A stretch of 64,000 nucleotides of DNA from an uncultured Candidatus Saccharibacteria bacterium (lineage in GTDB: Bacteria; Patescibacteriota; Saccharimonadia; Saccharimonadales; JAGQNJ01): NCBI GenBank assembly GCA_965231045.1, contig OZ246406.1:450208-514207 (forward strand), read 5' to 3'. Below are positions 19,969 through 59,610 of this stretch, piece by piece (positions within the stretch are counted from its first letter, which is position 1; each line of letters begins with the position of its first letter). The notes under the pieces are model-generated. The model worked only from the letters and a program-made list of their open reading frames with translations, ran no database searches and was not told the origin of the DNA. The translations under genes and the position numbers were made by a program.

Positions 19969-20381
19969 TGGTGGAGCTGCCGAGTACTGCCCTCGGGTCC
20001 GTCAGTTTATCTTTGTTAGTCTTCTACAGGTTTAGTCTATCTAAGTGTCTTAGGAGTATGTCTCAAGATAGACAGAAAAACATATTCCGCAGACTCTAAA
20101 GTCTTGGCACTAATAAGGAGTCAACTTATCAATGGGCATCCAGAAAATATGACATGCGTATTGAAATATCTGGCGTCATTCAAAGCACGGCTCCGGTAAT
20201 TAAACTGAAGCTGTTACGGTCTGAAGCTGTAGACCTGTAAATGCGTTAGCAAATACAGAAGCTACGCTCTTCAAACCGCGAGTAATAGCGTTTGCAATTA
20301 CTGGGTTTTGCCTATAACGCTGACAAGCGACCTGCAAGATCTAACTGATAAAGTCCAACGTCGAGCTTAAAATTCAGCCCC
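19969..20381 (-). ncRNA. ssrA: tmRNA (SsrA), 413 nt
   Basis: 5' GGGGCUGAAUUUUAAGCUCGACG and 3' CCGAG-GGCAGUA-CUCGG-CAGCUCC-A-CCA. The acceptor pairs GGGGCUG/CAGCUCC with the G3:U Ala identity pair. Candidate resume context UAAUU-GCA-AAC-GCU resembles E. coli UAGUC-GCA-AAC-GAC. Confidence 0.88.
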
Positions 20382-35530: not shown

Positions 35531-35605
35531 TGGTGACCTCAAGGGGAATCGAACCCCTATTGCCAGGATGAAAACCTGGTGTCCTAACCGTTAGACGATG
35601 AGGCC
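35531..35605 (-). tRNA. tRNA-Glu (anticodon UUC), CCA encoded
   Basis: GGCCTCATCGTCTAACGGTTAGGACACCAGGTTTTCATCCTGGCAATAGGGGTTCGATTCCCCTTGAGGTCACCA folds as a cloverleaf. Anticodon stem CCAGG/CCTGG, loop UUUUCAU. Confidence 0.9.
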
Positions 35606-35822: not shown

Positions 35823-36653
35823 TTATCGTTCTAGCTTTTTAGCAATTCTACGACGTATTTCGTAGGCTGCCGTACCGGCCACTGATGTTGCACCAAAGAT
35901 ACCTAGCATGTCACCTGCACCCGTCTTTGGAAGTTCACGTGGTGTTGGTGTTGGAGTCGGTGTAGGTGTTGGTGAAACTGGCTTAACTTCTACTGTGTAA
36001 ACAACTACTACTACATATTCCCAGCATCCCCATTGGTCACCACTACCGAAGTTTGGGCTACCGATAGGAGTAGTACCATTAACAGCGCTGTCTGGTAGGC
36101 TCTTCCAGCCATATGGCTCAGAGTAGATGTGGACACTTGATGGAACAAGCTTTAGTTCTACATCACTACCACAGTTCAGTTTAGCTGTATCGCTAACACT
36201 AGCTGCGTTTGTTGCAGTTACCGTACCAGCGAAAGTAAAGTTCTTGCTCTTTACATTTAGAGGTGTAGTCATAGTTAGTTTTACACCGTGGGCAACAGAT
36301 GTACCGTTACCGTTATCGTTAGTACCTTCATAGGCACCATTGTGAATGTAGTCACGAACATCGAATTTTTCACCTACATTACAACTTGCATTTAGTGGAT
36401 CAACCCATGGGCTGTCTTGAGTTGGAGTTTCATTGTTGCCGTTGCTCTTTCGAACACGAACGAAATCTGACTCAGCACCGTTAGCTGGATTGTCATCTGT
36501 ATAGATGTTAAAAGCTGGAGTTGTAGGAGCTACGACTGTAGCAGCCTGCGCCTTCATGTTACCAACCATGGCAATAACAGCAGCAACAAATAATGCTACA
36601 AGTGAGCTGGCGATGATTTTACGAATTTTCATAATTATCCTTCCTTTTCCCAC
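35823..36653 (-). CDS. LPXTG-anchored surface protein
   Basis: Signal peptide. PTPTPTPTPTP linker, then LPKTGAG + hydrophobic segment + RRRIAKK, the classic sortase sorting signal. Confidence 0.8.
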   Translation of the reverse strand: MGKGRIIMKIRKIIASSLVALFVAAVIAMVGNMKAQAATVVAPTTPAFNIYTDDNPANGAESDFVRVRKSNGNNETPTQDSPWVDPLNASCNVGEKFDVRDYIHNGAYEGTNDNGNGTSVAHGVKLTMTTPLNVKSKNFTFAGTVTATNAASVSDTAKLNCGSDVELKLVPSSVHIYSEPYGWKSLPDSAVNGTTPIGSPNFGSGDQWGCWEYVVVVVYTVEVKPVSPTPTPTPTPTPRELPKTGAGDMLGIFGATSVAGTAAYEIRRRIAKKLER

Positions 36654-36659
36654 TCTTAC

Positions 36660-37181
36660 TTAATTTGTGTGCTGTGGAACAGACTGATTAGGACCAGTAG
36701 TTGGTGTAGGAACTTCTGTAGTACTACCGCCTGGGGTCGTAGTTACAGTTACGTTAGGTGTAGTTGTCGTTGTAGTAATAATCTCAGTGGTTGTAGTTGT
36801 AGGTCTAGTAGTTGTAGTAACTTCTGATGTGGTTGTAGTTGATTCACTAGTAGTTGGAGCAGAAGTAGTTACTTTAATGCTATCTGTTGGTGCAGGTTGA
36901 CCTTCAGTAGTAGTTGGACAGATTTTAACAATAGTATTACATACATGTCCTGTGGTTTCAGTTACAGCTGCAGGCACTACAGGTGCTTGAGCTTCTGAGT
37001 GGCCTGCGATACCAAATGCAGCACCAACTGTTAATGCACCGCCCAAAATACCGGCAGCAACTCGGTGTTGGTATGCCCAGTTCATTGGGTTTAACTTTTC
37101 CATAGGTGATCGATTCATAATATAACTTCTCCTCTTATTCTTTACTCCACGCATAGCAGCCACCAAACGAGATAACTCCAC
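36660..37181 (-). CDS. secreted Thr-rich protein (start uncertain)
   Basis: Signal/TM segment (AAGILGGALTVGAAFGIAG) followed by poly-Thr low complexity. Confidence 0.5.
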   Translation of the reverse strand: MELSRLVAAMRGVKNKRRSYIMNRSPMEKLNPMNWAYQHRVAAGILGGALTVGAAFGIAGHSEAQAPVVPAAVTETTGHVCNTIVKICPTTTEGQPAPTDSIKVTTSAPTTSESTTTTSEVTTTTRPTTTTTEIITTTTTTPNVTVTTTPGGSTTEVPTPTTGPNQSVPQHTN

Positions 37182-37277
37182 ACGTTTTCACTATTCTATC
37201 ACAGAATTCATACCTTGTCAACTACGGTTATCCTTATTTTGCCTCTTTGGGTAGTTGATTGTAAGGTACTACTAAAC

Positions 37278-38681
37278 TTAACCGTTATTCTGTGGTGAAG
37301 ACGAGACACTTACTAGGCCCCAGCGGGTAACATATCTGTTAGAATCACTACCGGTGCGACCTTCAGCATCGCTACACATATAGACAGACATAGTCGAGTT
37401 ATAAAAGAAGTTTTTATACTCTCGTATAGCTGTATCATTTGTGCCAGATACGATTTCAGAGCCAAGCATTACATAGTTATATGTACGGCCATCGTTACGT
37501 ACAACCGAGGCAATATCGCCAGGATTTAGAGAAGTTGCGTTAGCCAATGGCCCACTAAAAGTTGACCCATGACCATAAACCACAAAGTTGCCACCCGCAT
37601 CTGTTGGATAGCTAGAAGTTGGTATACCATCTACGGTTTGCTCATGACCTGCAATTGGCAAATATACATTAATATTGCCGCTGGGATTAGTGGTTTGATT
37701 GTTAATCAGATTTGAACGAGTTCGGTTTGAACGCTTGTAAGCATTTGCAGGCATTTTTTGCTCGGCATCAGTACAGATTTCTGGGCCGGCTGGATCGGGA
37801 ATCAATTTATCAATTGTAGCCTGACCACTTCCAACCATACCGCTAATTTTTTCATGCTCACTCGTCTCATAAACTTGGATATTTTCACAAAGAGCCGGGA
37901 TATTAATTGTTGCAATCATGTCGCCAGGCTTTGCGGTGAATTTTACTGGTGGTTTTGGTGCTTCAGTAGTTGTTGGCGCTACAGTTGTTGGAGCAGCGGT
38001 TGTAGTTGGTGCTTCAGTAGTCGGGGTCTCAGTTGTTGGTTCTGGAGGTGTAATCTTTGGTGCTTCAGCGGCGGCTGGGACTGGTCTCATACTAGAAAAT
38101 TCAGCAACACCCACAATAGCACCAGTTATAACAGTGGTACCGACAGTTATCGCACCAAGTACAACACCAACCCTTTTGGCGCTTGGTTTAACCGTTTCCC
38201 AAGTTCCTGATAAGGCATCCTTAACCTTTGGAAGTTGTGGCGTCCGACGTGCTCGCTTAGGCTTTGGTGAAACAATAGTCACGTCTGGGGTCTCTGAAGA
38301 TTTCGCGTATGTGCGTTTGGCATCAAGTTCACTAACAATCGGAGCGTTAATTACAGGTTTTTTCCATGGTCCTAATGGGATAGCAGGCATGATATCCTCT
38401 ACAACTGGCTCAATAATTGGGCTTACCTCTGGAATAATAGGCTTCGGCTGAAAGTCTTGATAAGTTGGATATTGTTTCTTCTTGTGAGTATCCTTGAGGT
38501 GATTTTTGAGGATTTTATCGATATTAACTTCTGTGAGACCCTCGACGCGAGGCATATCAATACCTGAACCAACAGCATGTAGTGGCCCAATTTCTGGCAT
38601 TACTGTCTCTGTTACAGAGCCTAGGAACGCCTCGATATTGAAATCATTTCGTGTCTCTACAGACATATATAAACTCCTCAC
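37278..38681 (-). CDS. sortase-family transpeptidase with long N-terminal region and Pro/Thr linker
   Basis: The C-terminal region aligns to the sortase pattern: VVYGHGSTF...LNPGD...YNYV...MSVYMCSD (TLxTC-like Cys) ...NRYVTRWGL (Arg). Confidence 0.6.
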   Translation of the reverse strand: MRSLYMSVETRNDFNIEAFLGSVTETVMPEIGPLHAVGSGIDMPRVEGLTEVNIDKILKNHLKDTHKKKQYPTYQDFQPKPIIPEVSPIIEPVVEDIMPAIPLGPWKKPVINAPIVSELDAKRTYAKSSETPDVTIVSPKPKRARRTPQLPKVKDALSGTWETVKPSAKRVGVVLGAITVGTTVITGAIVGVAEFSSMRPVPAAAEAPKITPPEPTTETPTTEAPTTTAAPTTVAPTTTEAPKPPVKFTAKPGDMIATINIPALCENIQVYETSEHEKISGMVGSGQATIDKLIPDPAGPEICTDAEQKMPANAYKRSNRTRSNLINNQTTNPSGNINVYLPIAGHEQTVDGIPTSSYPTDAGGNFVVYGHGSTFSGPLANATSLNPGDIASVVRNDGRTYNYVMLGSEIVSGTNDTAIREYKNFFYNSTMSVYMCSDAEGRTGSDSNRYVTRWGLVSVSSSPQNNG

Positions 38682-38736: not shown

Positions 38737-40944
38737 TTATTTAGGCGGGGTCTGTTCTTCCTTAGGTTTAGCAGGAGCCTTAAAATGATCTGGTGAAAGA
38801 GCTGATTTAGCGAATGAGAAACCAAACGTACTGCCCTTGCCTTCCTCACTATGGAAAATAAGTGCTCCGCCTTGCGCCACAATAACTTTCTTGGCCATAA
38901 ATAACCCTAGACCCGTGCCATCTGGCCGAGCTTTTTTGGCATTGCCAGCTCGATAAAACTTACCAAATAAATGGTGTTGTTCTTCTTTAGGCACGCCAAT
39001 CCCATCATCAACAACTGTGAATTCTATGCTATCGCCTTTATCTTCAAGATTAACCTGAATGTGTCCGCCGGCTGGTGTGTAATAGATAGCGTTGTCGGCA
39101 AAGTTCATAATTACCTGCCGGATCTTGGTATCATCAAGCATAAGTGTCGGGAACTCTTTTGGCTTATGATAAGTAAGTTCCAGATCACGTCCTTTGGCCG
39201 TCTCTGTAAGTTGAGAGATTTCCCCTTCAACAACCTCAGCCAGGTTAGTTGGTTTAGGCTCAATGATAAATTTACCAGTACGAAGTCTAGAGACATTCAA
39301 TAGATCAGCAATCAAATACACCATACGTTGGGAACTTATAAAGGCTTGGTCGAGCAGCTTCTTTTGAGCGGCACTAATCTTACCGGCGTCACCCTCCATG
39401 ACCATGCTGACATAGCCTTTAACAGAGGTAAGCGGAGTACGTAACTGGTGTGAGGCCATGCTAATGAAGTCATCTTTGGTTTGATCCATCTGCTTCAATT
39501 TTTCATTTGTTCGCCTTAGCTGTCTTGTAGCTTCATTAACTTTCTCCTGCAAAGTTTCGGCAAAATTCTGAATTTCTTCAAACCTTAGCGAGTTTTGGAT
39601 AGCAATAACCAACTCATCTGATATGATCTCAAGCATTTTTGTATCTTGTGATGAATAAGGATTCCCACTCTTTTTTGGCCCCAGAATAATATAACCTAGT
39701 CCTTCACTTACCTTTTTCGGGGTATCCGTGAGTCTTGCTATAACAGATATATTGTTTCTTCTTAAGATTTCTCCTAAACCTCTATTTTCTTCACCAAGTT
39801 CGTCAGCAACTATTATCTTTGTGTGCATCTTAGGGGTTACTTCACGAGTATAGTTGATATCCTCTTCCGGGAAGTTCTTCGATGCATCACCAACAATACG
39901 TCTAGGTGTACTTCCCATCTCCTTTATCCCGAAAACGCAAAATTCTGATTTTAGAGTCTGCCCAATAACAGTTGAACTTTTTTTAAGTAGTTCTTCTAGC
40001 TCAATTGTTCCGACAAGCACTTTATTCAATTGATCTATCAGAACCTGGGGCTCATATGCATCCCGATAAAAAAGCCTGTTCGTAAATTTATCAAAGAATT
40101 TCTTTGCCGGAGGAAAGGAGAACGCCAGAACCACAGCTAACACAACATAAAATACCTGCTCGTTAAATGATAAATGAGTCTTGAATGCAAAAATATTGGC
40201 AATATTAAATGCAATTAGCGAATAAACTGCACCTAGGAAAATTATTGACAACGCATAACCTAGAGACCTAGCAACAATTAAGCGTATATCAAATAATTTA
40301 TGCCTAATAATCGCATATGCTGTTGCCCCAACAAAAAACACCGTGCCTGCCGGACCAAGTTTGGCAGTAACCCAACTTGTAACAAAGATTGGAAGAATAA
40401 CATTGAAAACTAATGCCCAGATAAAACTAGACATAAAACCAAATGCAACAAACTGAGCTTGCATTTTTTCAATCTGATCAACTTTATGTCGGTTTTTAAT
40501 GTAAACAACTAGGGCATATGTAAAAAGTAGTAGAACAATTACTGTGTAACCGTTATACATCAAACCTGGAACTACATCTGTACCGTCAGTACGAACTTTT
40601 ACTCCATAAACAACGAGGTTTGTTACACTGAAAATAATACCTACTGCGGTTACGAATGTAACATATAGTAAGCCTTTCTTTGTAAAACCAAGCTTTAAGG
40701 GGAAAACTCTTGAAAAAAGAGCTAATAATCCTGAGACTACTACTGGGAAGAAAAAAGCTGCTTTTGCGAAGAAAAGCCTTAGGTCAGGAGAAGCATTATC
40801 TGTAAAATAACTTGATATACTCCATAAACAAATTGAAAGGCTCATCGCCAAGAATATGCGATTAACAGCTGATTTTGTATTTCTTGCAAAAACTAGAAAA
40901 CCTACAAAAGCATTAATTAAGACAATGAAAATCAAGATTGCCAT
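38737..40944 (-). CDS. sensor histidine kinase with polytopic N-terminal membrane domain
   Basis: About 8 TM segments. HisKA H-box MASHQLRTPLT. HATPase N/G boxes (NFADNAIYYTP, DDGIGVP, GTGLGL). Confidence 0.85.
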   Translation of the reverse strand: MAILIFIVLINAFVGFLVFARNTKSAVNRIFLAMSLSICLWSISSYFTDNASPDLRLFFAKAAFFFPVVVSGLLALFSRVFPLKLGFTKKGLLYVTFVTAVGIIFSVTNLVVYGVKVRTDGTDVVPGLMYNGYTVIVLLLFTYALVVYIKNRHKVDQIEKMQAQFVAFGFMSSFIWALVFNVILPIFVTSWVTAKLGPAGTVFFVGATAYAIIRHKLFDIRLIVARSLGYALSIIFLGAVYSLIAFNIANIFAFKTHLSFNEQVFYVVLAVVLAFSFPPAKKFFDKFTNRLFYRDAYEPQVLIDQLNKVLVGTIELEELLKKSSTVIGQTLKSEFCVFGIKEMGSTPRRIVGDASKNFPEEDINYTREVTPKMHTKIIVADELGEENRGLGEILRRNNISVIARLTDTPKKVSEGLGYIILGPKKSGNPYSSQDTKMLEIISDELVIAIQNSLRFEEIQNFAETLQEKVNEATRQLRRTNEKLKQMDQTKDDFISMASHQLRTPLTSVKGYVSMVMEGDAGKISAAQKKLLDQAFISSQRMVYLIADLLNVSRLRTGKFIIEPKPTNLAEVVEGEISQLTETAKGRDLELTYHKPKEFPTLMLDDTKIRQVIMNFADNAIYYTPAGGHIQVNLEDKGDSIEFTVVDDGIGVPKEEQHHLFGKFYRAGNAKKARPDGTGLGLFMAKKVIVAQGGALIFHSEEGKGSTFGFSFAKSALSPDHFKAPAKPKEEQTPPK

Positions 40945-40966
40945 GAATACTGCTTATTTTAATTTA

Positions 40967-41809
40967 CTAATCTATTTCCGGCAAAACATATTCAAACTCA
41001 AGACCAGAACTTTTTGTATATAAATCATATATATCTTCGCTAAAAGCTTTCACTTTCTCTAGCCCTGTATAAAGATCAGTATAAACAGGTATGCTAGCCT
41101 TTGAACCTTCAAAAGGCTCAAAATCAGTCCCCTCGAAAGGAGTAAAAGGCTCACCCCAAGCCTGCATCATATTATAAATGTGGCTATCTACTATAGTTGC
41201 CCAGTGATTGTAACCATTTGCTAGTGACCATCTTACACAGGTGGAGTAAAGCACTGCGCTTGCACCATCCTTTGAATGGCCACTAGAATACTCTGGCATT
41301 ACAGCCATGGTAGTAATATCAACTGTATGATCAGGATCATATCCCATTTCAAGTTTTCTTTTTTCAGGTGAATCATCTTGCGATTTCCAAAGACTATTTG
41401 GTGCAACTATAGCATCAATCGTTATTAGCGAGTCATTTACTGGCTTAACAATCCTGATATTGCCTACCGGCTTTTGATTCTCATAATCTACAATTATCAA
41501 GAAAGTACTTGCCTCATCATATGGTTCATACATTTCTTTCATTTTGCCAATGTCATTTTTAAAACGCACCTCAAAGTTTTTCCATTCAATAAACCTAGCA
41601 ATATCAGATAATGGATTACTGCCGTCTACAATGTGAACGCCAAGATTTCTCCCCTGACGTATTTCATCGCTTGGGGTCAATTCACCAATTAATTCACTGA
41701 TTCGTTCTGGTTGCAAAGCTTCTATTGACCAATCAGCAACCCAGTCAGAAGAAGTATTGTCTATGTGTGGTCTTTCGGCATCAATCGAACTTTGTATATC
41801 TAAAGACAT
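40967..41809 (-). CDS. GNAT-fold (Acetyltransf_5 / N-acyl amino acid synthase-like) protein
   Basis: The pattern ...YEPYDEASTFLIIVDYENQKPVGNIRIV... and ...DITTMAVMPEYS... resembles the OlsB/LuxI-like acyltransferase fold. Assignment is tentative. Confidence 0.45.
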   Translation of the reverse strand: MSLDIQSSIDAERPHIDNTSSDWVADWSIEALQPERISELIGELTPSDEIRQGRNLGVHIVDGSNPLSDIARFIEWKNFEVRFKNDIGKMKEMYEPYDEASTFLIIVDYENQKPVGNIRIVKPVNDSLITIDAIVAPNSLWKSQDDSPEKRKLEMGYDPDHTVDITTMAVMPEYSSGHSKDGASAVLYSTCVRWSLANGYNHWATIVDSHIYNMMQAWGEPFTPFEGTDFEPFEGSKASIPVYTDLYTGLEKVKAFSEDIYDLYTKSSGLEFEYVLPEID

Positions 41810-42150
41810 TAAAATTCCTTGTAATCAAGATCTGTGGCTTCAAAAAAATCGTGCGTAAAGTTAATCGCATCTTGAACATCAAACTTCTTACAAGTATAAA
41901 TATCAACGCTAAAAAATAAAATGGGCTGTTCCCAGGCATAAAAATGAGCCCCAGAACTCTCCCAGTGAATCCAACCAGCCTCACCATATTTATCGGAACG
42001 GTGCGTAACTGGATCTAGCAAGGTCTTCATACCAATAACATCAGACAGCTTTGACAAATATTGCTTGATTTCATGAGCAGTTATATTTTTCTTTGGATAG
42101 CCTTCAATTACTGCTCTTTGTCTATAAATTTGTGGCGCAAGATCTCTCAT
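41809..42150 (-). CDS. S-adenosylmethionine decarboxylase-like pyruvoyl enzyme (SpeH/AdoMetDC fold)
   Basis: WESSGAHFYAWEQ...VDIYTCK aligns to ESH-LTIHTWPE...IDLFTCG of class-1 AdoMetDC, including the E-S self-cleavage site. Confidence 0.6.
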   Translation of the reverse strand: MRDLAPQIYRQRAVIEGYPKKNITAHEIKQYLSKLSDVIGMKTLLDPVTHRSDKYGEAGWIHWESSGAHFYAWEQPILFFSVDIYTCKKFDVQDAINFTHDFFEATDLDYKEF

Positions 42151-42183
42151 GTATTTCCTAGGTTTATGCTTAATGATTTATGT

Positions 42184-42231
42184 ACAAAAAATACGACATG
42201 ACAGAGGAATAAGATCCTCACATGTCGTATT
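42184..42231 (-). terminator. intrinsic terminator after the ABC operon
   Basis: 11-bp stem AATACGACATG/CATGTCGTATT with an inner GAGGA/TCCTC helix, followed on the minus strand by TTTTTTG. Confidence 0.7.
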
Positions 42232-42292
42232 CAATCTTCTAAAGTACAAATAATATTTTAGCAAATTATAGTCAATAGATCAACTACAATGT

Positions 42293-43033
42293 TTATGGTT
42301 TAATTACGCTTCCGTCTCTTAGCTCAATCACTCTTTCAGCATGGTTCTTTATATTTGGCTCATGTGAGACGCAGATGATAGATGTACCTGCATATTGGGT
42401 AATATCAAAAAAGAGTGATAATGTTCTCTCCGTCATCTTTGAGTCAAGGGCTGCCGTAGGCTCATCGGCAACAACAAGTTCGGGTCTATGCGCAAACCCA
42501 GCAACGATGGCTACTCTTTGAGCCTCACCACCAGATAGCGCTCCAGCATATTTTCCTAGATGTTTCGAAATCTCTAAATTATGAATCAAGAAGTCAAGCC
42601 ACTCTGGATCCAGTTTATTACCCCTGGCTTGTTGCGGTAATTTTATGTATTGTTCCGCAGTTAAATATGGGTCTAGATAAGGATTCTGAGCAATGTATCC
42701 AAGATATCTTGAGCGATATGCAGCCAGGTAACGTTCCGCTTTTGTTTCTAGTCTTAACTTTTTAACTGCCCTACCTAGAGTTGATTCAGATACCATGGAC
42801 CTATTAACAAATGATCCCTCATTAATACCAGTATGACTAACAGAACCTTCTGTAGGTTTTTGAAGACCGTGAATTACAGACGCAAACGTGCTTTTCCCGG
42901 CACCAGATGGACCAATTATTGCTGTAAAGCCAGAATGAAAATCAACCGATACATCATCTAAAACAATTGCGCCTTCCCTTACTACACTAACACCTTCTAC
43001 TTTAATGATTGGGTCACTTTCTAAACTACTCAT
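42293..43033 (-). CDS. ABC transporter ATP-binding protein
   Basis: Walker A GPSGAGKST, signature LSGGEAQR, Walker B LVVADEPT. Confidence 0.88.
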   Translation of the reverse strand: MSSLESDPIIKVEGVSVVREGAIVLDDVSVDFHSGFTAIIGPSGAGKSTFASVIHGLQKPTEGSVSHTGINEGSFVNRSMVSESTLGRAVKKLRLETKAERYLAAYRSRYLGYIAQNPYLDPYLTAEQYIKLPQQARGNKLDPEWLDFLIHNLEISKHLGKYAGALSGGEAQRVAIVAGFAHRPELVVADEPTAALDSKMTERTLSLFFDITQYAGTSIICVSHEPNIKNHAERVIELRDGSVIKP

Positions 43034-44511
43034 AGAGTATGCCCCTTGCTAAGATCCATATTTGAAGCCTCGCGTCGTATAGCTATAGCCGTCCCAGCCT
43101 TATTTATTCCATAATTTATTCCTACAATACAAAGAACAGTCTTAACACTCGGAGCCAATGCGGCTCCAGGAATACCAGTATTAGTATATACATCCGCTAG
43201 TAGCACAACTGGTATAGCAATAAGGGATGAGTATAGTGCCTCTGATTCAGCAATTTCTGAATACTTTTTACTAAGTGCATGCTTATCCAGTCCATTAGCA
43301 CCCCAGACAGTGTTAATTCGTGTATTTTCTTTTAACCTATTCCTAGCCCTATTACCTAAGGCTGCTGCCGCAAGCAATGATGCGACCGTCATTGCCTGAA
43401 GAACCAACGGGTTAACACTGTTTTCACCTGTTTCTTTACTATTCTGTACGAATTTATCAACAGGAACAACAAATGCACGATCTGTTAGAGTGTCTGGGGA
43501 AAGCCCTTGCTCAGCCAAAAGTTTTTGAATCTCAGTTTTTTGACCTTGTGCAAGTATTAGAGAATATGGCTGATCTGGGGTATTTCTAACACAGCGTGCA
43601 AAATCTTCATTATTAAATAGTACAGGTAGTAGGTTTAACCCACTTTTCTCCTCAATAACATTATTAACAGTTAAAGTCAGCCCATCCATAGTAAAGGTTT
43701 CACCCTTTTTGACGCCAAGCTCTTTTGCAACATCTACAGAAATTTCTTTACATTCTTTATCAGCAAGTGGAATTTGTGTTGTTTCACTTGGCAAACTACC
43801 TGTAAGTAGTTGGATTTTTGTCCCTTCTTCACCCTTACGCTGGCCAGAATGCCACTCCCAGGTTCCTGGCACTGCCGTTATATTATGCTCTTTGGCATGT
43901 GCTAAAAATCCATTTGCTCTATTAATTGAAATACTAGTGTTATTAGCTAATTCTGGTACTGGAGTATTAGATATAACATAATTTCCAATATTATCACTTG
44001 GTCTTTCCGCCCCAAGTATATTCGCGAAATAATCAGCAACTTTTGCTTGTGAACTACTTACTTCGTGAGCAGTATCAACAAAATTACCTATCATTGCACC
44101 CGTACCTACAACGATCAAGCTTGCTTGTGCGACCCTTCTACCAACCGAACCTCTTGACTGATTTCTGGCATGAGCCATTTCATGTATAGCTTGATCCTCA
44201 GAGCTAAACGCCCGCCTAATATGCCCGACGCCCCTCTTAACAAGTAATCCAGCTCCTAAAATTGCTCCGCCTTCCACAGCTAAATTAAAAGCATTTGCTA
44301 GCCCATCAGATGGGCTAACTGAATCGCTCGCAGTGCTGACTATAGGGCTGTCAAGATTTGTGTTTTCGTGCGTAACAACACCCACTCCTGCAGCCACACC
44401 TCCGAGCATAATTAAACCCGTAGCAACTTGTCCAAATTTTCGCCTTAAAGCATTGTTATATTCAGATTGAGACCCAGATTCAGCACCACCAATTTTAGCT
44501 AGTTCAGACAT
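43030..44511 (-). CDS. FtsX/MacB-like ABC permease with large extracytoplasmic domain
   Basis: N-terminal TM, an ~300-aa extracytoplasmic region, and C-terminal TM cluster. ATGA coupling to the ATPase gene. Confidence 0.6.
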   Translation of the reverse strand: MSELAKIGGAESGSQSEYNNALRRKFGQVATGLIMLGGVAAGVGVVTHENTNLDSPIVSTASDSVSPSDGLANAFNLAVEGGAILGAGLLVKRGVGHIRRAFSSEDQAIHEMAHARNQSRGSVGRRVAQASLIVVGTGAMIGNFVDTAHEVSSSQAKVADYFANILGAERPSDNIGNYVISNTPVPELANNTSISINRANGFLAHAKEHNITAVPGTWEWHSGQRKGEEGTKIQLLTGSLPSETTQIPLADKECKEISVDVAKELGVKKGETFTMDGLTLTVNNVIEEKSGLNLLPVLFNNEDFARCVRNTPDQPYSLILAQGQKTEIQKLLAEQGLSPDTLTDRAFVVPVDKFVQNSKETGENSVNPLVLQAMTVASLLAAAALGNRARNRLKENTRINTVWGANGLDKHALSKKYSEIAESEALYSSLIAIPVVLLADVYTNTGIPGAALAPSVKTVLCIVGINYGINKAGTAIAIRREASNMDLSKGHTL

Positions 44512-44575: not shown

Positions 44576-45514
44576 TTATGTCTGTCTAGGCTCAATTGTA
44601 TACTTATGAAAAAAGTTGCATGTTCCTAGAGTAAGCATAAACATCCTTAGTTCATCAAGGCCGTAGTCCGGGCCCAGATTTACATACGTATATCCTTGCT
44701 CAATGAATCTTTTTGCAAACATATATCCCAGTATTTCAAAACCAAAGGTAAGCCTGTTGGTAGCTTTAATATGCTTCATGACAACATACTTACCGTCGCT
44801 TGAGGGTTGATAGAGACAAAATCCCCAAATTTTGCCGTTAACAAATAGGCATAGATTATCCACTCCAAGCTTATCAGAGTTAATAATATAATTCTCAATG
44901 CACTCACCCTCTATAGAGCCAAAGTCATTTAGTTTATTTTTTACTCTCCATTTAGCTGCTGCATTTAGTAAAAGATCTCTCTCTGATTTAACTTGCAGAT
45001 CTAAACTTGTTACCGATATCTTTTTATCTTCTAAAAAGTTAATAACTTTAGCTGCTACGCGTTGCCAGTGTGGCGCCATATTTTTCAGCGGATAGAAATG
45101 GGAAAGTGGCAACACATATTCATTCAAATGTCTTTGCTCTTTAAACGTATACATATCATGATATCTGATAAAACTAAGCACGAACTCTGGAACATTTACT
45201 AGTCTCGCTGGATCACCTTTTTCTCTTAGATAATCGAAAATTGCACATATAGACTCATCAATTTTTCTAGTCCCAACAATTGATAGACCAGTATTTTCTT
45301 CATCTCCAGGCATCCAATACGGTATTACCAGATTTCCATTAAGCTCACTAACCGATATATCGCCTAGAGGGTTCCACCATGACATTAATCCTGGGAAAGA
45401 AATATCATATATGGGTGGATAATTTCGAATTGCCAACTCATATTCGTCCTTTTTTTCCCATGTTAATTTACTAAACTCTGGGAAGGATTTGAAAGTAGAA
45501 AGCCTGGTCTTCAT
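44576..45514 (-). CDS. soluble DUF2156 (LPG-synthase C-terminal / aa-tRNA-dependent transferase fold) protein, paralog 1
   Basis: 312 aa with no TM. NYPPIYDISFPGLMSWWNPLG...LSIVGTRKIDESI... and C-terminal NLGPDYGLDELRMFMLTLG fit the DUF2156 pattern. Clear paralog of 46433-47416. Confidence 0.55.
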   Translation of the reverse strand: MKTRLSTFKSFPEFSKLTWEKKDEYELAIRNYPPIYDISFPGLMSWWNPLGDISVSELNGNLVIPYWMPGDEENTGLSIVGTRKIDESICAIFDYLREKGDPARLVNVPEFVLSFIRYHDMYTFKEQRHLNEYVLPLSHFYPLKNMAPHWQRVAAKVINFLEDKKISVTSLDLQVKSERDLLLNAAAKWRVKNKLNDFGSIEGECIENYIINSDKLGVDNLCLFVNGKIWGFCLYQPSSDGKYVVMKHIKATNRLTFGFEILGYMFAKRFIEQGYTYVNLGPDYGLDELRMFMLTLGTCNFFHKYTIEPRQT

Positions 45515-45632: not shown

Positions 45633-46016
45633 ATGCAGTCTAAACAAAAAATAGTAATCGTAGAGGATGAGCCGTCGATACAAGAAATGTATCGGATGAA
45701 GTTAAACTTATCCGGGTTTGACGTACAAACCGCAAATAATGGCGAAGATGGGCTAAAAGTAATCGATGCTTTTGAACCTCACCTGATTTTGCTCGATCTT
45801 AAGATGCCAGTTATGAGTGGTGACATCATGCTTGAAAAACTGCGTGAGACCAAAAAAGGCGCAGAGATTCGTGTAATAGTTCTCACAAACATTAGTCGTG
45901 ATGAAGCGCCACACAATCTGCGATTCCTAAATGTTGATCGGTATATTGTAAAAGCACATTACACACCGACACAGGTGATAAATGTCGTTGAAGAAGTTCT
46001 TGGTATAAAGAAGTAA
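45633..46016 (+). CDS. stand-alone response-regulator receiver protein (CheY-like), copy 1
   Basis: 127 aa. EDE acidic pair, phospho-Asp context ILLDLKMP, VLTN, and VKA Lys. Confidence 0.85.
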   Translation: MQSKQKIVIVEDEPSIQEMYRMKLNLSGFDVQTANNGEDGLKVIDAFEPHLILLDLKMPVMSGDIMLEKLRETKKGAEIRVIVLTNISRDEAPHNLRFLNVDRYIVKAHYTPTQVINVVEEVLGIKK

Positions 46017-46052: not shown

Positions 46053-46421
46053 ATGGGTGCTAGGATCGCAATACTTGAAGATGATCAGCCCATACGCGAG
46101 ATGTATGAGCTCAAACTGAAGAGTGCCGGATACACTGTTAAAGCAGCCGGTGACGGCGTTCAAGGCCTAACGCTTTTGGAAAAATTCAGGCCTGACTTAA
46201 TACTTCTCGACCTTATGATGCCAGAAATGAACGGTGATGAAGTCGCCGAAAAGGTTCGCTCAACTAAGTGGGGAGCAAAAACAAAAATTATTGTTCTGAC
46301 TAATATTAGTTTGGATGAAGCGCCTGAAAAGTTACAAAAACTTGGAATACTAGATTATGTTGTCAAAGCCAATCACACACCTTCCCAGGTTATCGAAATA
46401 GTTCAAAACGCATTACATTAA
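46053..46421 (+). CDS. stand-alone response-regulator receiver protein, copy 2
   Basis: 122 aa. EDD, ILLDLMMPEMNG, VLTN, VKA. Confidence 0.85.
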   Translation: MGARIAILEDDQPIREMYELKLKSAGYTVKAAGDGVQGLTLLEKFRPDLILLDLMMPEMNGDEVAEKVRSTKWGAKTKIIVLTNISLDEAPEKLQKLGILDYVVKANHTPSQVIEIVQNALH

Positions 46422-46432
46422 AAAATGTAAGA

Positions 46433-47416
46433 TTACCTAATTCTTCTTTTAACCCCATAGTAGCGCCTACTCTTCACATAAGATTCTTCCGGTCGGACAG
46501 TATACTTTTTAAATGCATTTTTTGGCCTTAAAGAAAGTAGGTGAGCTCGATATTTTGGGTCACCTATATGTATAACCATATTTACGAATTTCGCGTTTTC
46601 TTTAGTAAATAATTCTGCCATCTTGTAGCATGCAAAGCTATGTGATCCAGGCACATCGAATGTAAATCCAGAGTACTTTATTACCTTATAGTTGCTATTT
46701 AGAGGTGATTCATATAATGAAAAGCTATTGATTTCATCATCTATATAAAGCGAAACAACTTCTGTGCCAAGTTTGGTTGCATTGTTAATTGAATACAGGA
46801 ATGCATTCTCTGCGTGACTTGGAAGACAATTAACTTCAGCTTTTTCTTTCCAGTCAAAATAACAGTTAATTATTAACTCTCGGTTTTCTGGCTTACTGAG
46901 ATCTATCTTTTTTAGGTCAACCCTTTTCCCTTTTGTGGCTCGTAAAAAGCTTCCGACTTTGATTCGTAGAAATATTGGCATTGACTTAATTTCTGCCGTT
47001 TCTTCGACCAACAATAAGGATTCTACGTAGTCAGGCTCATCCTCACAGCCAAACATCTCGGGGTACCTAATGTGTCCTAGTACAAAATCTGGTACGTGAA
47101 CTAGCTTACTTTCCTGGTCTTGAGCTTTTTGGTAATCAAAAATTTCGCAAATTGATTCGTCAATTTTATTAGTGCCCACCAGTGAAAGTCCTGAGTTTTC
47201 GTCATCTCCGGGCAGCCAATATGATATGACCAAGTTCCCGTGAATTTGTGAAACCTTACAATTACCAAGTGAGCTCCACCAACTCATTAAACTCGAAAAA
47301 GAGATTTCCGAGATTGGTGGATAATCTCGAATTAAGGCATTGTAAGCATCTCTATCAGACAACTTTAATTCATAAAACTCTGGAAATTCTGGGAGAACGA
47401 GTGGCTTTATCTTCAT
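46433..47416 (-). CDS. soluble DUF2156-like protein, paralog 2
   Basis: 327 aa. DYPPISEISFSSLMSWWSSLG...LSLVGTNKIDESI, collinear with paralog 1. Confidence 0.55.
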   Translation of the reverse strand: MKIKPLVLPEFPEFYELKLSDRDAYNALIRDYPPISEISFSSLMSWWSSLGNCKVSQIHGNLVISYWLPGDDENSGLSLVGTNKIDESICEIFDYQKAQDQESKLVHVPDFVLGHIRYPEMFGCEDEPDYVESLLLVEETAEIKSMPIFLRIKVGSFLRATKGKRVDLKKIDLSKPENRELIINCYFDWKEKAEVNCLPSHAENAFLYSINNATKLGTEVVSLYIDDEINSFSLYESPLNSNYKVIKYSGFTFDVPGSHSFACYKMAELFTKENAKFVNMVIHIGDPKYRAHLLSLRPKNAFKKYTVRPEESYVKSRRYYGVKRRIR

Positions 47417-47521: not shown

Positions 47522-47893
47522 ATGTCGGCCAAGATCGCAATCATAGAAGACGATCAAGCTATTTCTCAGATGTACCGCATCAAATTTGAGGCGGAAGGTT
47601 TTGTTGTCGAGACTGCCGAAAACGGCAAACTTGGATTAGAACTTGCCGAAAATATGAAGCCAGATATTATTCTGCTGGACCTTATGATGCCAGAAATGAA
47701 CGGCGATGAAATGCTGTCCAAACTCCGCAAAACCCCGTTTGGCAAAAATACAAAAGTAGTCATCCTTACCAACATGGGCGAGCAAGAAGTCCCAGAAGAA
47801 GTTAAGAAACTTGGTGTTGTGGCAATTATTCTTAAGGCTGATATGACACCGCGCCAGGTAGCTGAACTTGTTAAGAAACAACTCAACAAATAG
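47522..47893 (+). CDS. stand-alone response-regulator receiver protein, copy 3
   Basis: 123 aa. EDD, ILLDLMMPEMNG, ILTN, LKA. Confidence 0.85.
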   Translation: MSAKIAIIEDDQAISQMYRIKFEAEGFVVETAENGKLGLELAENMKPDIILLDLMMPEMNGDEMLSKLRKTPFGKNTKVVILTNMGEQEVPEEVKKLGVVAIILKADMTPRQVAELVKKQLNK

Positions 47894-52606: not shown

Positions 52607-52642
52607 CTCGTCAGAGCAAGCCCAAAGCCTCACTCTGACGAG
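52607..52642 (+). other. perfect 10-bp hairpin abutting the tRNA-Lys 5' end
   Basis: CTCGTCAGAG (52607-52616) / CTCTGACGAG (52633-52642). The last G is tRNA nt 1. The upstream GCGAGTTTACT 52598-52608 matches rc of copy A 4794-4803. Confidence 0.5.
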
Positions 52643-52718
52643 GGCCACTAGCTCAGCTGGTTAGAGCATCGGCCTCTTAAGCCGAGTGTCCTGGGTTCGA
52701 GTCCCAGGTGGCCCTCCA
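52642..52718 (+). tRNA. tRNA-Lys (anticodon CUU), CCA encoded
   Basis: GGGCCACTAGCTCAGCTGGTTAGAGCATCGGCCTCTTAAGCCGAGTGTCCTGGGTTCGAGTCCCAGGTGGCCCTCCA. Anticodon loop CUCUUAA. Confidence 0.9.
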
Positions 52719-59533: not shown

Positions 59534-59610
59534 TGGTACACCGGGAGGGATTCGAACCCCCGACCCTCTGTTCCGAAGACAGATGCTCTAATCCGCTGAG
59601 CTACCGGTGC
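59534..59610 (-). tRNA. tRNA-Arg (anticodon UCG), CCA encoded
   Basis: GCACCGGTAGCTCAGCGGATTAGAGCATCTGTCTTCGGAACAGAGGGTCGGGGGTTCGAATCCCTCCCGGTGTACCA. Anticodon loop CUUCGGA. Confidence 0.9.

Follow-up and report, generated by a model that had tools for sequence, protein, structure and literature searches.

Among described quorum-sensing modules, LuxM/LuxN and CqsA/CqsS combine a signal synthase with a polytopic sensor kinase, and the pherotype loci agr and ComQXP carry a hypervariable segment that spans synthase and receptor. The subject of this study is a three-gene operon in a 64,000-nucleotide stretch (the window) of contig OZ246406.1, from an uncultured Candidatus Saccharibacteria bacterium. 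The operon encodes a 113-residue protein resembling S-adenosylmethionine decarboxylase (AdoMetDC), a 280-residue acyltransferase-like protein and a membrane histidine kinase. As in LuxM/LuxN and CqsA/CqsS, a putative synthase gene adjoins the gene of a multi-pass membrane histidine kinase; as in agr and ComQXP, a hypervariable cassette covers the putative specificity enzyme and the kinase sensor, with conserved flanks on either side. Unlike LuxM, CqsA and AgrB, to which the enzymes are unrelated, this pair is predicted to yield a small N-acyl amine instead of a peptide or hydroxyketone, and the output would be a receiver-only regulator. We rate the locus as a putative module of the synthase/receptor type, built from an undescribed enzyme pair.

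Two bodies of published work come closest. In genomes of the candidate phyla radiation, 18 LuxI-like/sensor-kinase neighbours, two of them in Saccharibacteria, have been proposed as quorum-sensing systems (Bernard et al. 2020, PMC7567580); the text and tables of that study, unlike the module described here, make no mention of a decarboxylase partner, a cross-phylum distribution or co-variation. Separately, the conversion of AdoMetDC homologues into decarboxylases of arginine or ornithine has been found to be widespread, in the candidate phyla radiation as well as elsewhere (Li et al. 2023, PMC10407285, PMC9992855). Literature searches combining Saccharibacteria with AdoMetDC, or with kinase and acyltransferase, returned nothing specific, and no paper on this pair was found.

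The 113-residue family resembles the SpeDA/SpeDC decarboxylases of Li et al. in its small class-1b fold and in keeping the pyruvoyl serine and the cysteine. Like the neofunctionalised SpeD homologues, it has lost the AdoMetDC proline and, in the window, has no spermidine synthase partner; the pattern E-T/S-S...F...W...D-x-Y-T-C is common to it and a pelagiphage homologue. It differs from SpeDA/SpeDC in an N-terminal DLAPxIYRQR of its own, in its SGAHFYAW core, in a tyrosine in place of His68 and in its partner, a LuxI/FeeM-like acyltransferase rather than polyamine synthases; the window protein is only 17-20% identical to the Thermotoga enzyme. It is a subfamily of its own beside the neofunctionalised SpeD homologues. 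The 280-residue protein shares its GNAT fold with BjaI, RpaI, EsaI and FeeM, its nearest structures, and its family shows weak profile matches to Acetyltransf_5, FeeM, Autoind_synth and an exosortase-associated acyltransferase family. Unlike acyl-homoserine lactone (AHL) synthases and FeeM, it falls below every curated cut-off, carries an extra N-terminal segment and is almost obligately paired with a decarboxylase, and its acceptor is presumably a decarboxylated amine instead of S-adenosylmethionine (SAM) or an amino acid.

A conserved gene pair and a hypervariable cassette

The decarboxylase family was scanned with one genome per species; 403 species were positive, and 80 loci were fetched and analysed. 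Most of these come from Saccharibacteria, the others from Actinomycetota (Cryobacterium, Winogradskya, Geodermatophilus, Jatrophihabitans, Gordonia, Dietzia, Acidimicrobiia), Planctomycetaceae, Micavibrio and Bdellovibrionales; some loci (titled Binatia, Nevskiaceae and Mycolicibacterium sphagni) have Saccharibacteria-like GC content and synteny, and these titles may stem from binning or contamination. With an acyltransferase profile, a relative of the 280-residue protein was found to start at most 282 nt after the decarboxylase stop codon in 67 of the 80 loci. Two more loci have it 3.5 kb away, with a GGDEF-EAL gene between. Stop and start codons overlap by 1 or 4 nt in 26 of 68 adjacent loci, the window copy counted.

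In the window itself the two genes overlap by 1 nt (TAATG), the last codons of the decarboxylase gene (AAG GAA TTT TAA) contain an AAGGA ribosome-binding site for the acyltransferase gene, and 22 nt separate the latter from the kinase gene. Direct reading of the sequence thus agrees with an initial annotation of this DNA, which had listed five minus-strand open reading frames with this overlap and this gap. A single 388-residue open reading frame in locus L069 (359-1525, a metagenome-assembled contig assigned to Gordonia) joins decarboxylase-like and acyltransferase-like parts in frame; on a contig of 5.5 kb, either a genuine fusion or a misassembly is conceivable. The pairing of a decarboxylase fold with an N-acyltransferase fold, on which the initial annotation had built its proposal and whose adjacency it had expected to recur in relatives, is a strong and old association, translationally coupled and widely conserved.

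A small gene overlapping a GNAT gene could also suggest a toxin-antitoxin pair. This reading was rejected because the small protein has an enzyme fold with 46 invariant columns and about 70% identity across phyla, because the GNAT is LuxI/FeeM-like and not of the aminoacyl-tRNA-acetylating type, and because synteny around the genes is stable.

A neighbour-joining tree of the acyltransferase relatives (L005-L084) mixes actinobacterial branches (Cryobacterium, Dietzia, Winogradskya, Acidimicrobiia) with those of Saccharibacteria. This hints at repeated transfer of the acyltransferase between epibiont and host phyla, in a tree with long branches and made by a crude method.

Loci of the Saccharibacteria type follow one order: FolD, MurD, a divergent receiver-only regulator, the decarboxylase, the acyltransferase, a 7TM kinase and LPXTG surface proteins. 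This neighbourhood and the source names of a few relatives also assign the window to Saccharibacteria. The kinase follows the pair in 43 such loci, and a receiver-only regulator lies within 6 kb in 44 (the window copy counted), usually divergent and ~100-200 nt upstream of the decarboxylase gene. The window kinase combines HisKA_7TM (residues 3-220), HisKA and HATPase_c domains, its sensor has 8-9 transmembrane (TM) segments by hydropathy, and family matches place its core near WalK and PhoR.

Co-variation was measured on pairwise distance matrices for 34 loci with decarboxylase, acyltransferase and kinase (Mantel/Spearman, 5,000 permutations), the first 290 residues of the kinase being taken as its TM sensor. 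The acyltransferase tracks this sensor with a rho of 0.83 (p = 0.0002); the value stays at 0.83 when the kinase core or the decarboxylase is partialled out, and is 0.80 without close pairs. The corresponding values for the acyltransferase are 0.14 against the kinase catalytic core, 0.15 against the kinase middle region, 0.15 against FolD and 0.04 against the decarboxylase. Sensor and catalytic core of the same kinase correlate at 0.18, FolD and the kinase core at 0.64. By sensor, the nearest neighbour falls in the same acyltransferase group in 30 of 33 cases, against 17 of 33 by kinase core and 12 of 19 by FolD.

Close relatives show where the variation begins and ends. Between the window and L008, identity is 69% in the decarboxylase, 14% in the acyltransferase, 21% in the sensor and 80% in the kinase core; between L024 and L026 it is 85% in FolD, 72% in the decarboxylase, 22% in the acyltransferase, 16% in the sensor and 81% in the kinase core. 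At the DNA level, L024 and L026 are 65-80% identical in the flanks and the decarboxylase gene. A drop to 30-45% sets in exactly at the acyltransferase start and lasts until about kinase residue 420, after which the DHp/ATPase core is again 65-81% identical. Among close relatives, sliding identity is likewise low up to about kinase residue 420-440. The hypervariable segment of the window is also AT-richer, with a GC content of 0.35-0.38 (0.351 in the sensor) vs 0.44 in the kinase core. A hypervariable cassette of acyltransferase and kinase sensor is therefore bordered by a constant decarboxylase on one side and a constant kinase core on the other, and its two parts co-diversify independently of the flanking conserved genes, as in a pherotype module. 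The coupling of the pair to a membrane sensor kinase, noted at the outset from gene spacing in the window, is in this way both conserved across Saccharibacteria and reinforced.

The decarboxylase-like and acyltransferase-like proteins

The 113-residue protein had been annotated as AdoMetDC-like, and this call was borne out by family and fold. It matches Pfam AdoMet_dc (PF02675) with 39.9 bits (cut-off 25), and its AlphaFold2 (AF2) model (pLDDT 95) finds the Thermotoga maritima AdoMetDC (1tmi/1tlu/1vr7) in Foldseek at a TM-score of 0.79 and an E-value of 4e-7. Superposed on the T. maritima and Aquifex enzymes, the model reaches TM-scores of 0.74-0.80 at an identity of just 14-18%. The alpha-beta sandwich fold, together with a Pfam score above the gathering cut-off, places the protein in AdoMetDC class 1b. 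Sequence and profile searches of the PDB with the 113- and 280-residue proteins gave chance matches to RNA-binding domains only, and the folds were therefore obtained by prediction.

The family comprises more than 1,390 clusters, with ~70% identity (also across phyla) and 46 invariant columns. Its invariant motifs are THRS, WIHWE-x-SGAHFYAW and SVD-x-YTCK, and the window protein contains WESSGAHFYAW and DIYTC. Aligned by hhalign and by MAFFT to the Thermotoga sequence, which was verified against 1TLU, the invariant S66 falls on the pyruvoyl Ser63 and C87 on Cys83 of the T. maritima enzyme. The self-cleavage motif had initially been given as ESS; its second serine is the invariant S66, and the residue before it varies among S, T and N (never Glu) in the family, so that the motif is really E-x-S. 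The 113-residue protein is a divergent member of the AdoMetDC fold and probably still works with a pyruvoyl group.

It is probably not a SAM decarboxylase. A conserved proline after tryptophan (HTWPE) separates true AdoMetDC from arginine decarboxylases (PMC10407285), and in the window protein Glu74 occupies the column of this marker proline (Pro71). With the NCBIfam model SAM_DCase_Bsu the protein reaches 17.7 bits, where the cut-off demands 75.65. SpeE has no match in the 64-kb window (E >= 1.2), in keeping with the initial remark that spermidine synthase is absent nearby, and none in 78 of the 80 related loci. The canonical spermidine pathway was rejected on the missing SpeE in the window, the equivalog score far below its cut-off and the missing marker proline. 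The sole match in a phage collection is the SpeD homologue of Pelagibacter phage HTVC109P, which has E-T-S and hence the same E-x-S pattern; a related pelagiphage SpeD homologue is a demonstrated arginine decarboxylase (PMC9992855).

Planctomycetaceae loci add context. In L074 (7072-11005) and L067, a decarboxylase relative 66% identical, with no GNAT after it, precedes a 377-residue protein of the arginine-deiminase superfamily and a GadC/TyrP-like amino acid/amine antiporter, a setting that hints at an amino-acid substrate of the family, arginine for example. Given the lost marker proline, the pelagiphage-like motif, the absence of SpeE from the window and these neighbours, a basic amino acid (arginine, ornithine) is more likely than SAM as the substrate, and an aminopropyl product from decarboxylated SAM is less likely than an amino-acid-derived amine. 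SAM is the less likely candidate; LuxI-type enzymes do bind it.

Other relatives of the decarboxylase keep different company. The two Planctomycetaceae loci have an extracytoplasmic function (ECF) sigma factor and a Ser/Thr kinase upstream. A third type of partner set occurs in Micavibrio (L039, 7953-10614) and Bdellovibrionales (L053, 7914-10554), where the decarboxylase is followed by an unrelated protein without a family match (255 residues in L039) and a class I/II aminotransferase, whose best NCBIfam match, the guanitoxin enzyme GntC, lies well below its cut-off. The proteins downstream of the decarboxylase in these two loci were considered as divergent GNATs and rejected, the profile giving an E-value of 0.2 for the Micavibrio protein and no report at E <= 10 for the Bdellovibrionales one. 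Cyanobacterial plasmids carry relatives of ~33% identity (L090, 5908-7357, Acaryochloris marina pREC2; L091, 7001-7363, Nostoc) in which DSG replaces E-x-SG and His69 is missing; the relative on pREC2 directly follows a tandem-GNAT acetyltransferase, a GNAT of a different kind.

For the 280-residue protein, the AF2 model (pLDDT 88.5) has a GNAT fold. Its best Foldseek E-values are to the AHL synthases BjaI, RpaI, MesI and EsaI (E 2e-7 to 9e-6; TM-score 0.5-0.58 on target), its best TM-score is to the N-acyl amino acid synthase FeeM (2g0b; 0.75 on target), and SpeG and PaiA are also among the matches. The protein has no significant Pfam match of its own: the Acetyltransf_5-like label first given to it corresponds to 12.6 bits, under the cut-off of 22.4, and draws its support from the GNAT fold and from weak Acetyltransf_5 matches in 18 of 20 close relatives (best 1.1e-6), with sporadic ones among 30 more distant partners. 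The NCBIfam exosortase-associated acyltransferase family matches it at 4e-6 over 32 residues. Autoind_synth (PF00765) gives no match to the window protein and weak ones in 4 of 20 close and 2 of 30 diverse relatives, and the NCBIfam models for the AHL synthase TraI reach an E-value of ~0.09. The protein thus has the fold of the GNAT-derived AHL synthases and lacks their profile; no curated family covers it, and its identity as an acyltransferase, which the initial annotation had taken as essential to its case, is suggested by the predicted fold and the weak matches in relatives.

These matches bear on two other explanations of the pair. The GNAT might be a canonical AHL synthase that uses SAM directly, with the decarboxylase only modulating SAM supply. 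The top Foldseek E-values, the weak Autoind_synth matches in a few relatives and the reported LuxI-like/kinase adjacency in the candidate phyla radiation (PMC7567580) point that way. We nevertheless consider this highly improbable: the AHL synthase profiles do not recognise the window protein, FeeM superposes better than any AHL synthase, and AHL synthesis has no use for the decarboxylase, a near-obligatory and sometimes fused partner. The second explanation is ordinary polyamine metabolism, in which a neofunctionalised arginine or ornithine decarboxylase would make agmatine or putrescine, the GNAT would be a polyamine N-acetyltransferase like SpeG or PaiA that serves homeostasis, and the kinase would be a mere syntenic neighbour. 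It draws on the wide occurrence of such decarboxylases, on SpeG and PaiA among the structural matches and on the planctomycete antiporter with its arginine-deiminase-like companion. Against it, the GNAT is closest to LuxI/FeeM enzymes that use acyl chains, not to SpeG; a housekeeping acetyltransferase is not expected to show 14-22% identity between close relatives while tracking a sensor; and the pair is linked with signal-transduction proteins in three different phyletic contexts. On balance, we regard the polyamine explanation as doubtful, leaning to unlikely.

A proposed synthase/receptor module

Our favoured reading, held at about even confidence, is that decarboxylase, acyltransferase and kinase, together with the receiver-only regulator, form a putative signal-synthase/receptor module. 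We infer its enzymatic and sensing steps from predicted folds and conserved residues, from the linkage and fusion of the genes, and from cassette-like co-variation. The 113-residue protein would cleave itself before Ser66, into residues 1-65 and 66-113, to generate a pyruvoyl group, and this form would decarboxylate an amino acid, arginine or ornithine being likelier than SAM. Pyruvoyl decarboxylases need a free alpha-amino group for the Schiff base, so decarboxylation would come before N-acylation. Next, the LuxI/FeeM-like GNAT, whose synthesis the overlapping start ties to that of the decarboxylase, would N-acylate the resulting amine with acyl-coenzyme A (acyl-CoA) or acyl-acyl carrier protein (acyl-ACP) as donor. 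As the co-variation suggests, the membrane sensor of the adjacent kinase may recognise this N-acyl amine, and the kinase may then phosphorylate the CheY-like regulator. The near-invariance of the decarboxylase suggests a constant head group, and the divergence of acyltransferase and sensor as one cassette suggests a variable acyl part with matching receptors.

Signalling proteins of other kinds accompany the pair in high-GC loci. In 15 of these loci membrane GGDEF-EAL proteins are encoded within 2 kb, the gene arrangements numbering at least four, and in four loci Ser/Thr kinases are linked to the pair.

Several observations weigh against the proposed module. His68 of T. maritima AdoMetDC, which that enzyme requires for processing and catalysis, corresponds to an invariant Tyr71 here; the same strand carries an invariant His69 two residues before this tyrosine. 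Co-variation of adjacent segments can come from one swapped piece of DNA, with no functional specificity. Cassette-like co-variation was also sought in nine actinobacterial loci and was not seen, the GNAT tracking the sensor no better than the catalytic domains. The Cryobacterium loci lack an adjacent sensor. A ligand-binding membrane domain common to the Saccharibacteria kinases and the actinobacterial GGDEF-EAL membrane sensors was considered and rejected, no homology being detectable between them (hhalign probability 0.4). The acyl donor is a further problem, since Saccharibacteria are generally regarded as lacking fatty-acid synthesis.

Some of these points would also fit linkage without specificity, in which the cassette is one recombining segment, or the GNAT is a physical regulator of the kinase and the 113-residue protein a non-catalytic subunit, with no small-molecule signal. 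The co-varying segments are indeed contiguous on the DNA, the loss of His68 suits a protein that is not a catalyst, and non-catalytic AdoMetDC-fold domains exist, such as the N-terminal domain of human spermine synthase, itself a structural match. However, the segment borders coincide with the acyltransferase start and the sensor/DHp junction in two independent pairs, which argues for selection while being no proof of specificity; the invariant Ser, Cys and Glu are kept, as expected of an active enzyme; and the pair persists without any kinase in Actinomycetota. Together these make linkage without specificity very unlikely in our judgement.

A wider version of the synthase/receptor module holds that Saccharibacteria and their host Actinomycetota share a new class of small N-acyl-amine autoinducers, the products of an AdoMetDC-derived decarboxylase and a LuxI/FeeM-like acyltransferase. 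The epibionts would have pherotypes with matched alleles of acyltransferase and 7TM-kinase sensor, and the actinobacteria would read the signal through cyclic di-GMP enzymes. We regard this extension as unlikely.

Neighbourhood of the operon and biological meaning

The features of the locus are collected in the table.

Features of the operon and its surroundings (window positions; +, forward strand; -, reverse strand)
Feature	Position	Strand	Notes
Permease-like gene	43030-44511	-	493 aa
ABC ATPase gene	42293-43033	-	Pfam ABC_tran
Hairpin followed by U6, intrinsic-terminator-like	42183-42232	-	spacer fold; 33 nt upstream of decarboxylase start codon
AdoMetDC-fold decarboxylase-like gene	41809-42150	-	113 aa; Pfam AdoMet_dc
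Candidate pyruvoyl serine S66, codon	41953-41955	-
Catalytic-type cysteine C87, codon	41890-41892	-
LuxI/FeeM-like GNAT acyltransferase gene	40967-41809	-	280 aa; predicted fold
Histidine kinase gene	38737-40944	-	735 aa
Kinase residues 1-290, polytopic 7TM-type sensor	40075-40944	-	Pfam HisKA_7TM
Kinase residues 291-480, cytoplasmic middle	39505-40074	-	no family match; mostly within hypervariable segment
Kinase residues 481-735, conserved HisKA (DHp) and HATPase_c core	38737-39504	-	Pfam
Receiver-only response regulator, candidate phospho-acceptor of the kinase	45633-46016	+	Pfam Response_reg
Two paralogous receiver-only regulators	46053-46421 and 47522-47893	+
Two soluble LPG_synthase_C-like paralogues, no membrane domain	44576-45514 and 46433-47416	-

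Upstream of the operon lie an ATP-binding cassette (ABC) ATPase gene and a permease-like gene, and the initial annotation had drawn this transporter into a module that produces, exports and senses its product. The ATPase is nearest LolD, DevA, MacB and FtsE, with scores below their cut-offs. The permease, first called FtsX-like, matches neither FtsX/MacB_PCD nor any other family; its topology of one TM segment, a 320-residue loop and three TM segments, and its LolD/DevA/MacB/FtsE-like ATPase partner, do fit the MacB/FtsX type. Neighbourhood data led us to reject the exporter as part of the module, leaving production and sensing as the partly supported share of the original proposal. Relatives of the ATPase occur in only 6 of the 80 loci, all high-GC, at 22-27% identity and variable distance, and no relative of the permease lies near the decarboxylase in any of the 80. 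Five relatives of the permease were found. Only one, 61% identical, repeats the window arrangement beside the pair; another stands with two LPG_synthase_C-like genes and a response regulator where the pair is absent, and one more has an unrelated context. In the window, what separates regulator and decarboxylase (the transporter, the two LPG_synthase_C-like genes and two additional regulators) has the look of an insertion specific to the lineage.

The spacer of 142 nt between the ABC ATPase and decarboxylase genes (42151-42292) holds a 12+5-bp hairpin followed by U6 and folds at -35.3 kcal/mol (z = -4.1 vs shuffles), which upholds the terminator initially placed there; a simple terminator scan missed the hairpin because its loop is long. 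It closes the ABC operon or serves as a leader hairpin of the decarboxylase operon. The best promoter-like site for the latter, at 42283-42255 (TTGATC and TAAAAT with 17 nt between them and a TG before TAAAAT), precedes the hairpin, which, beyond ending the ABC operon, may therefore lie in the operon's 5' leader as an attenuator. A riboswitch or other leader RNA upstream of the decarboxylase gene was looked for and dropped, Rfam giving no match at E <= 1.

Directly downstream of the kinase, three genes (35823-38681, reverse strand) encode a sortase-domain protein, a threonine-rich protein of 173 residues and a 276-residue surface protein with a terminal LPKTG sorting signal. The sortase-domain protein has a 350-residue N-terminal extension, in which a TM segment and a linker rich in proline and threonine are found. 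Elsewhere in Saccharibacteria, the kinase is followed by DUF11-type LPXTG proteins. The stretch in which the LPG_synthase_C-like paralogues (LPG_synthase_C being the C-terminal domain of aminoacyl-phosphatidylglycerol synthase) are interleaved with the three receiver-only regulators is AT-richer (GC 0.36-0.42). L086 and L087 have two LPG_synthase_C-like copies together with the same ABC pair. The RNA genes of the window are a transfer-messenger RNA (tmRNA; 19969-20381, reverse), found by Rfam and not reported by ARAGORN, and genes for tRNA-Glu(TTC) (35531-35605, reverse), tRNA-Lys(CTT) (52642-52718, forward) and tRNA-Arg(TCG) (59534-59610, reverse).

This setting bears on whether the product might serve the envelope instead of signalling. 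The N-acyl amine could be retained by the membrane as an aminolipid comparable to the OlsB-type ornithine lipids, or modify the wall, with the kinase monitoring the envelope and regulating the operon instead of binding a signal that diffuses. The Acetyltransf_5/FeeM clan includes lipid N-acyltransferases, the locus lies between murD/murI and sortase/LPXTG surface-protein genes, and the kinase core resembles kinases of the WalK/PhoR type; LPG_synthase_C-like genes recur at the locus in other Saccharibacteria, and in L025 and L042 one stands in the usual place of the acyltransferase. An envelope role would leave unexplained why acyltransferase and sensor are swapped jointly as a hypervariable cassette, and gene neighbourhood in Saccharibacteria is weak evidence because the genomes are highly syntenic. 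We consider it doubtful.

Little is known of how Saccharibacteria, obligate epibionts with tiny genomes, perceive each other and the actinobacteria that host them. If the synthase/receptor module is real, a signal synthase/receptor unit retained in such genomes would be a concrete handle on the sensing of kin and hosts. The module shows putative specificity groups at strain level, the enzyme pair also occurs in cultivable Actinomycetota (Cryobacterium, Winogradskya, Geodermatophilus), and both enzymes are small, soluble and easily expressed. For the two enzyme families, it would mean that AdoMetDC homologues have been repurposed beyond polyamine supply and that the LuxI/FeeM acyltransferase clan gains amine acceptors made in situ. 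Should the autoinducer class prove to be shared with the hosts, kin discrimination and cross-talk between epibiont and host would both be possible.

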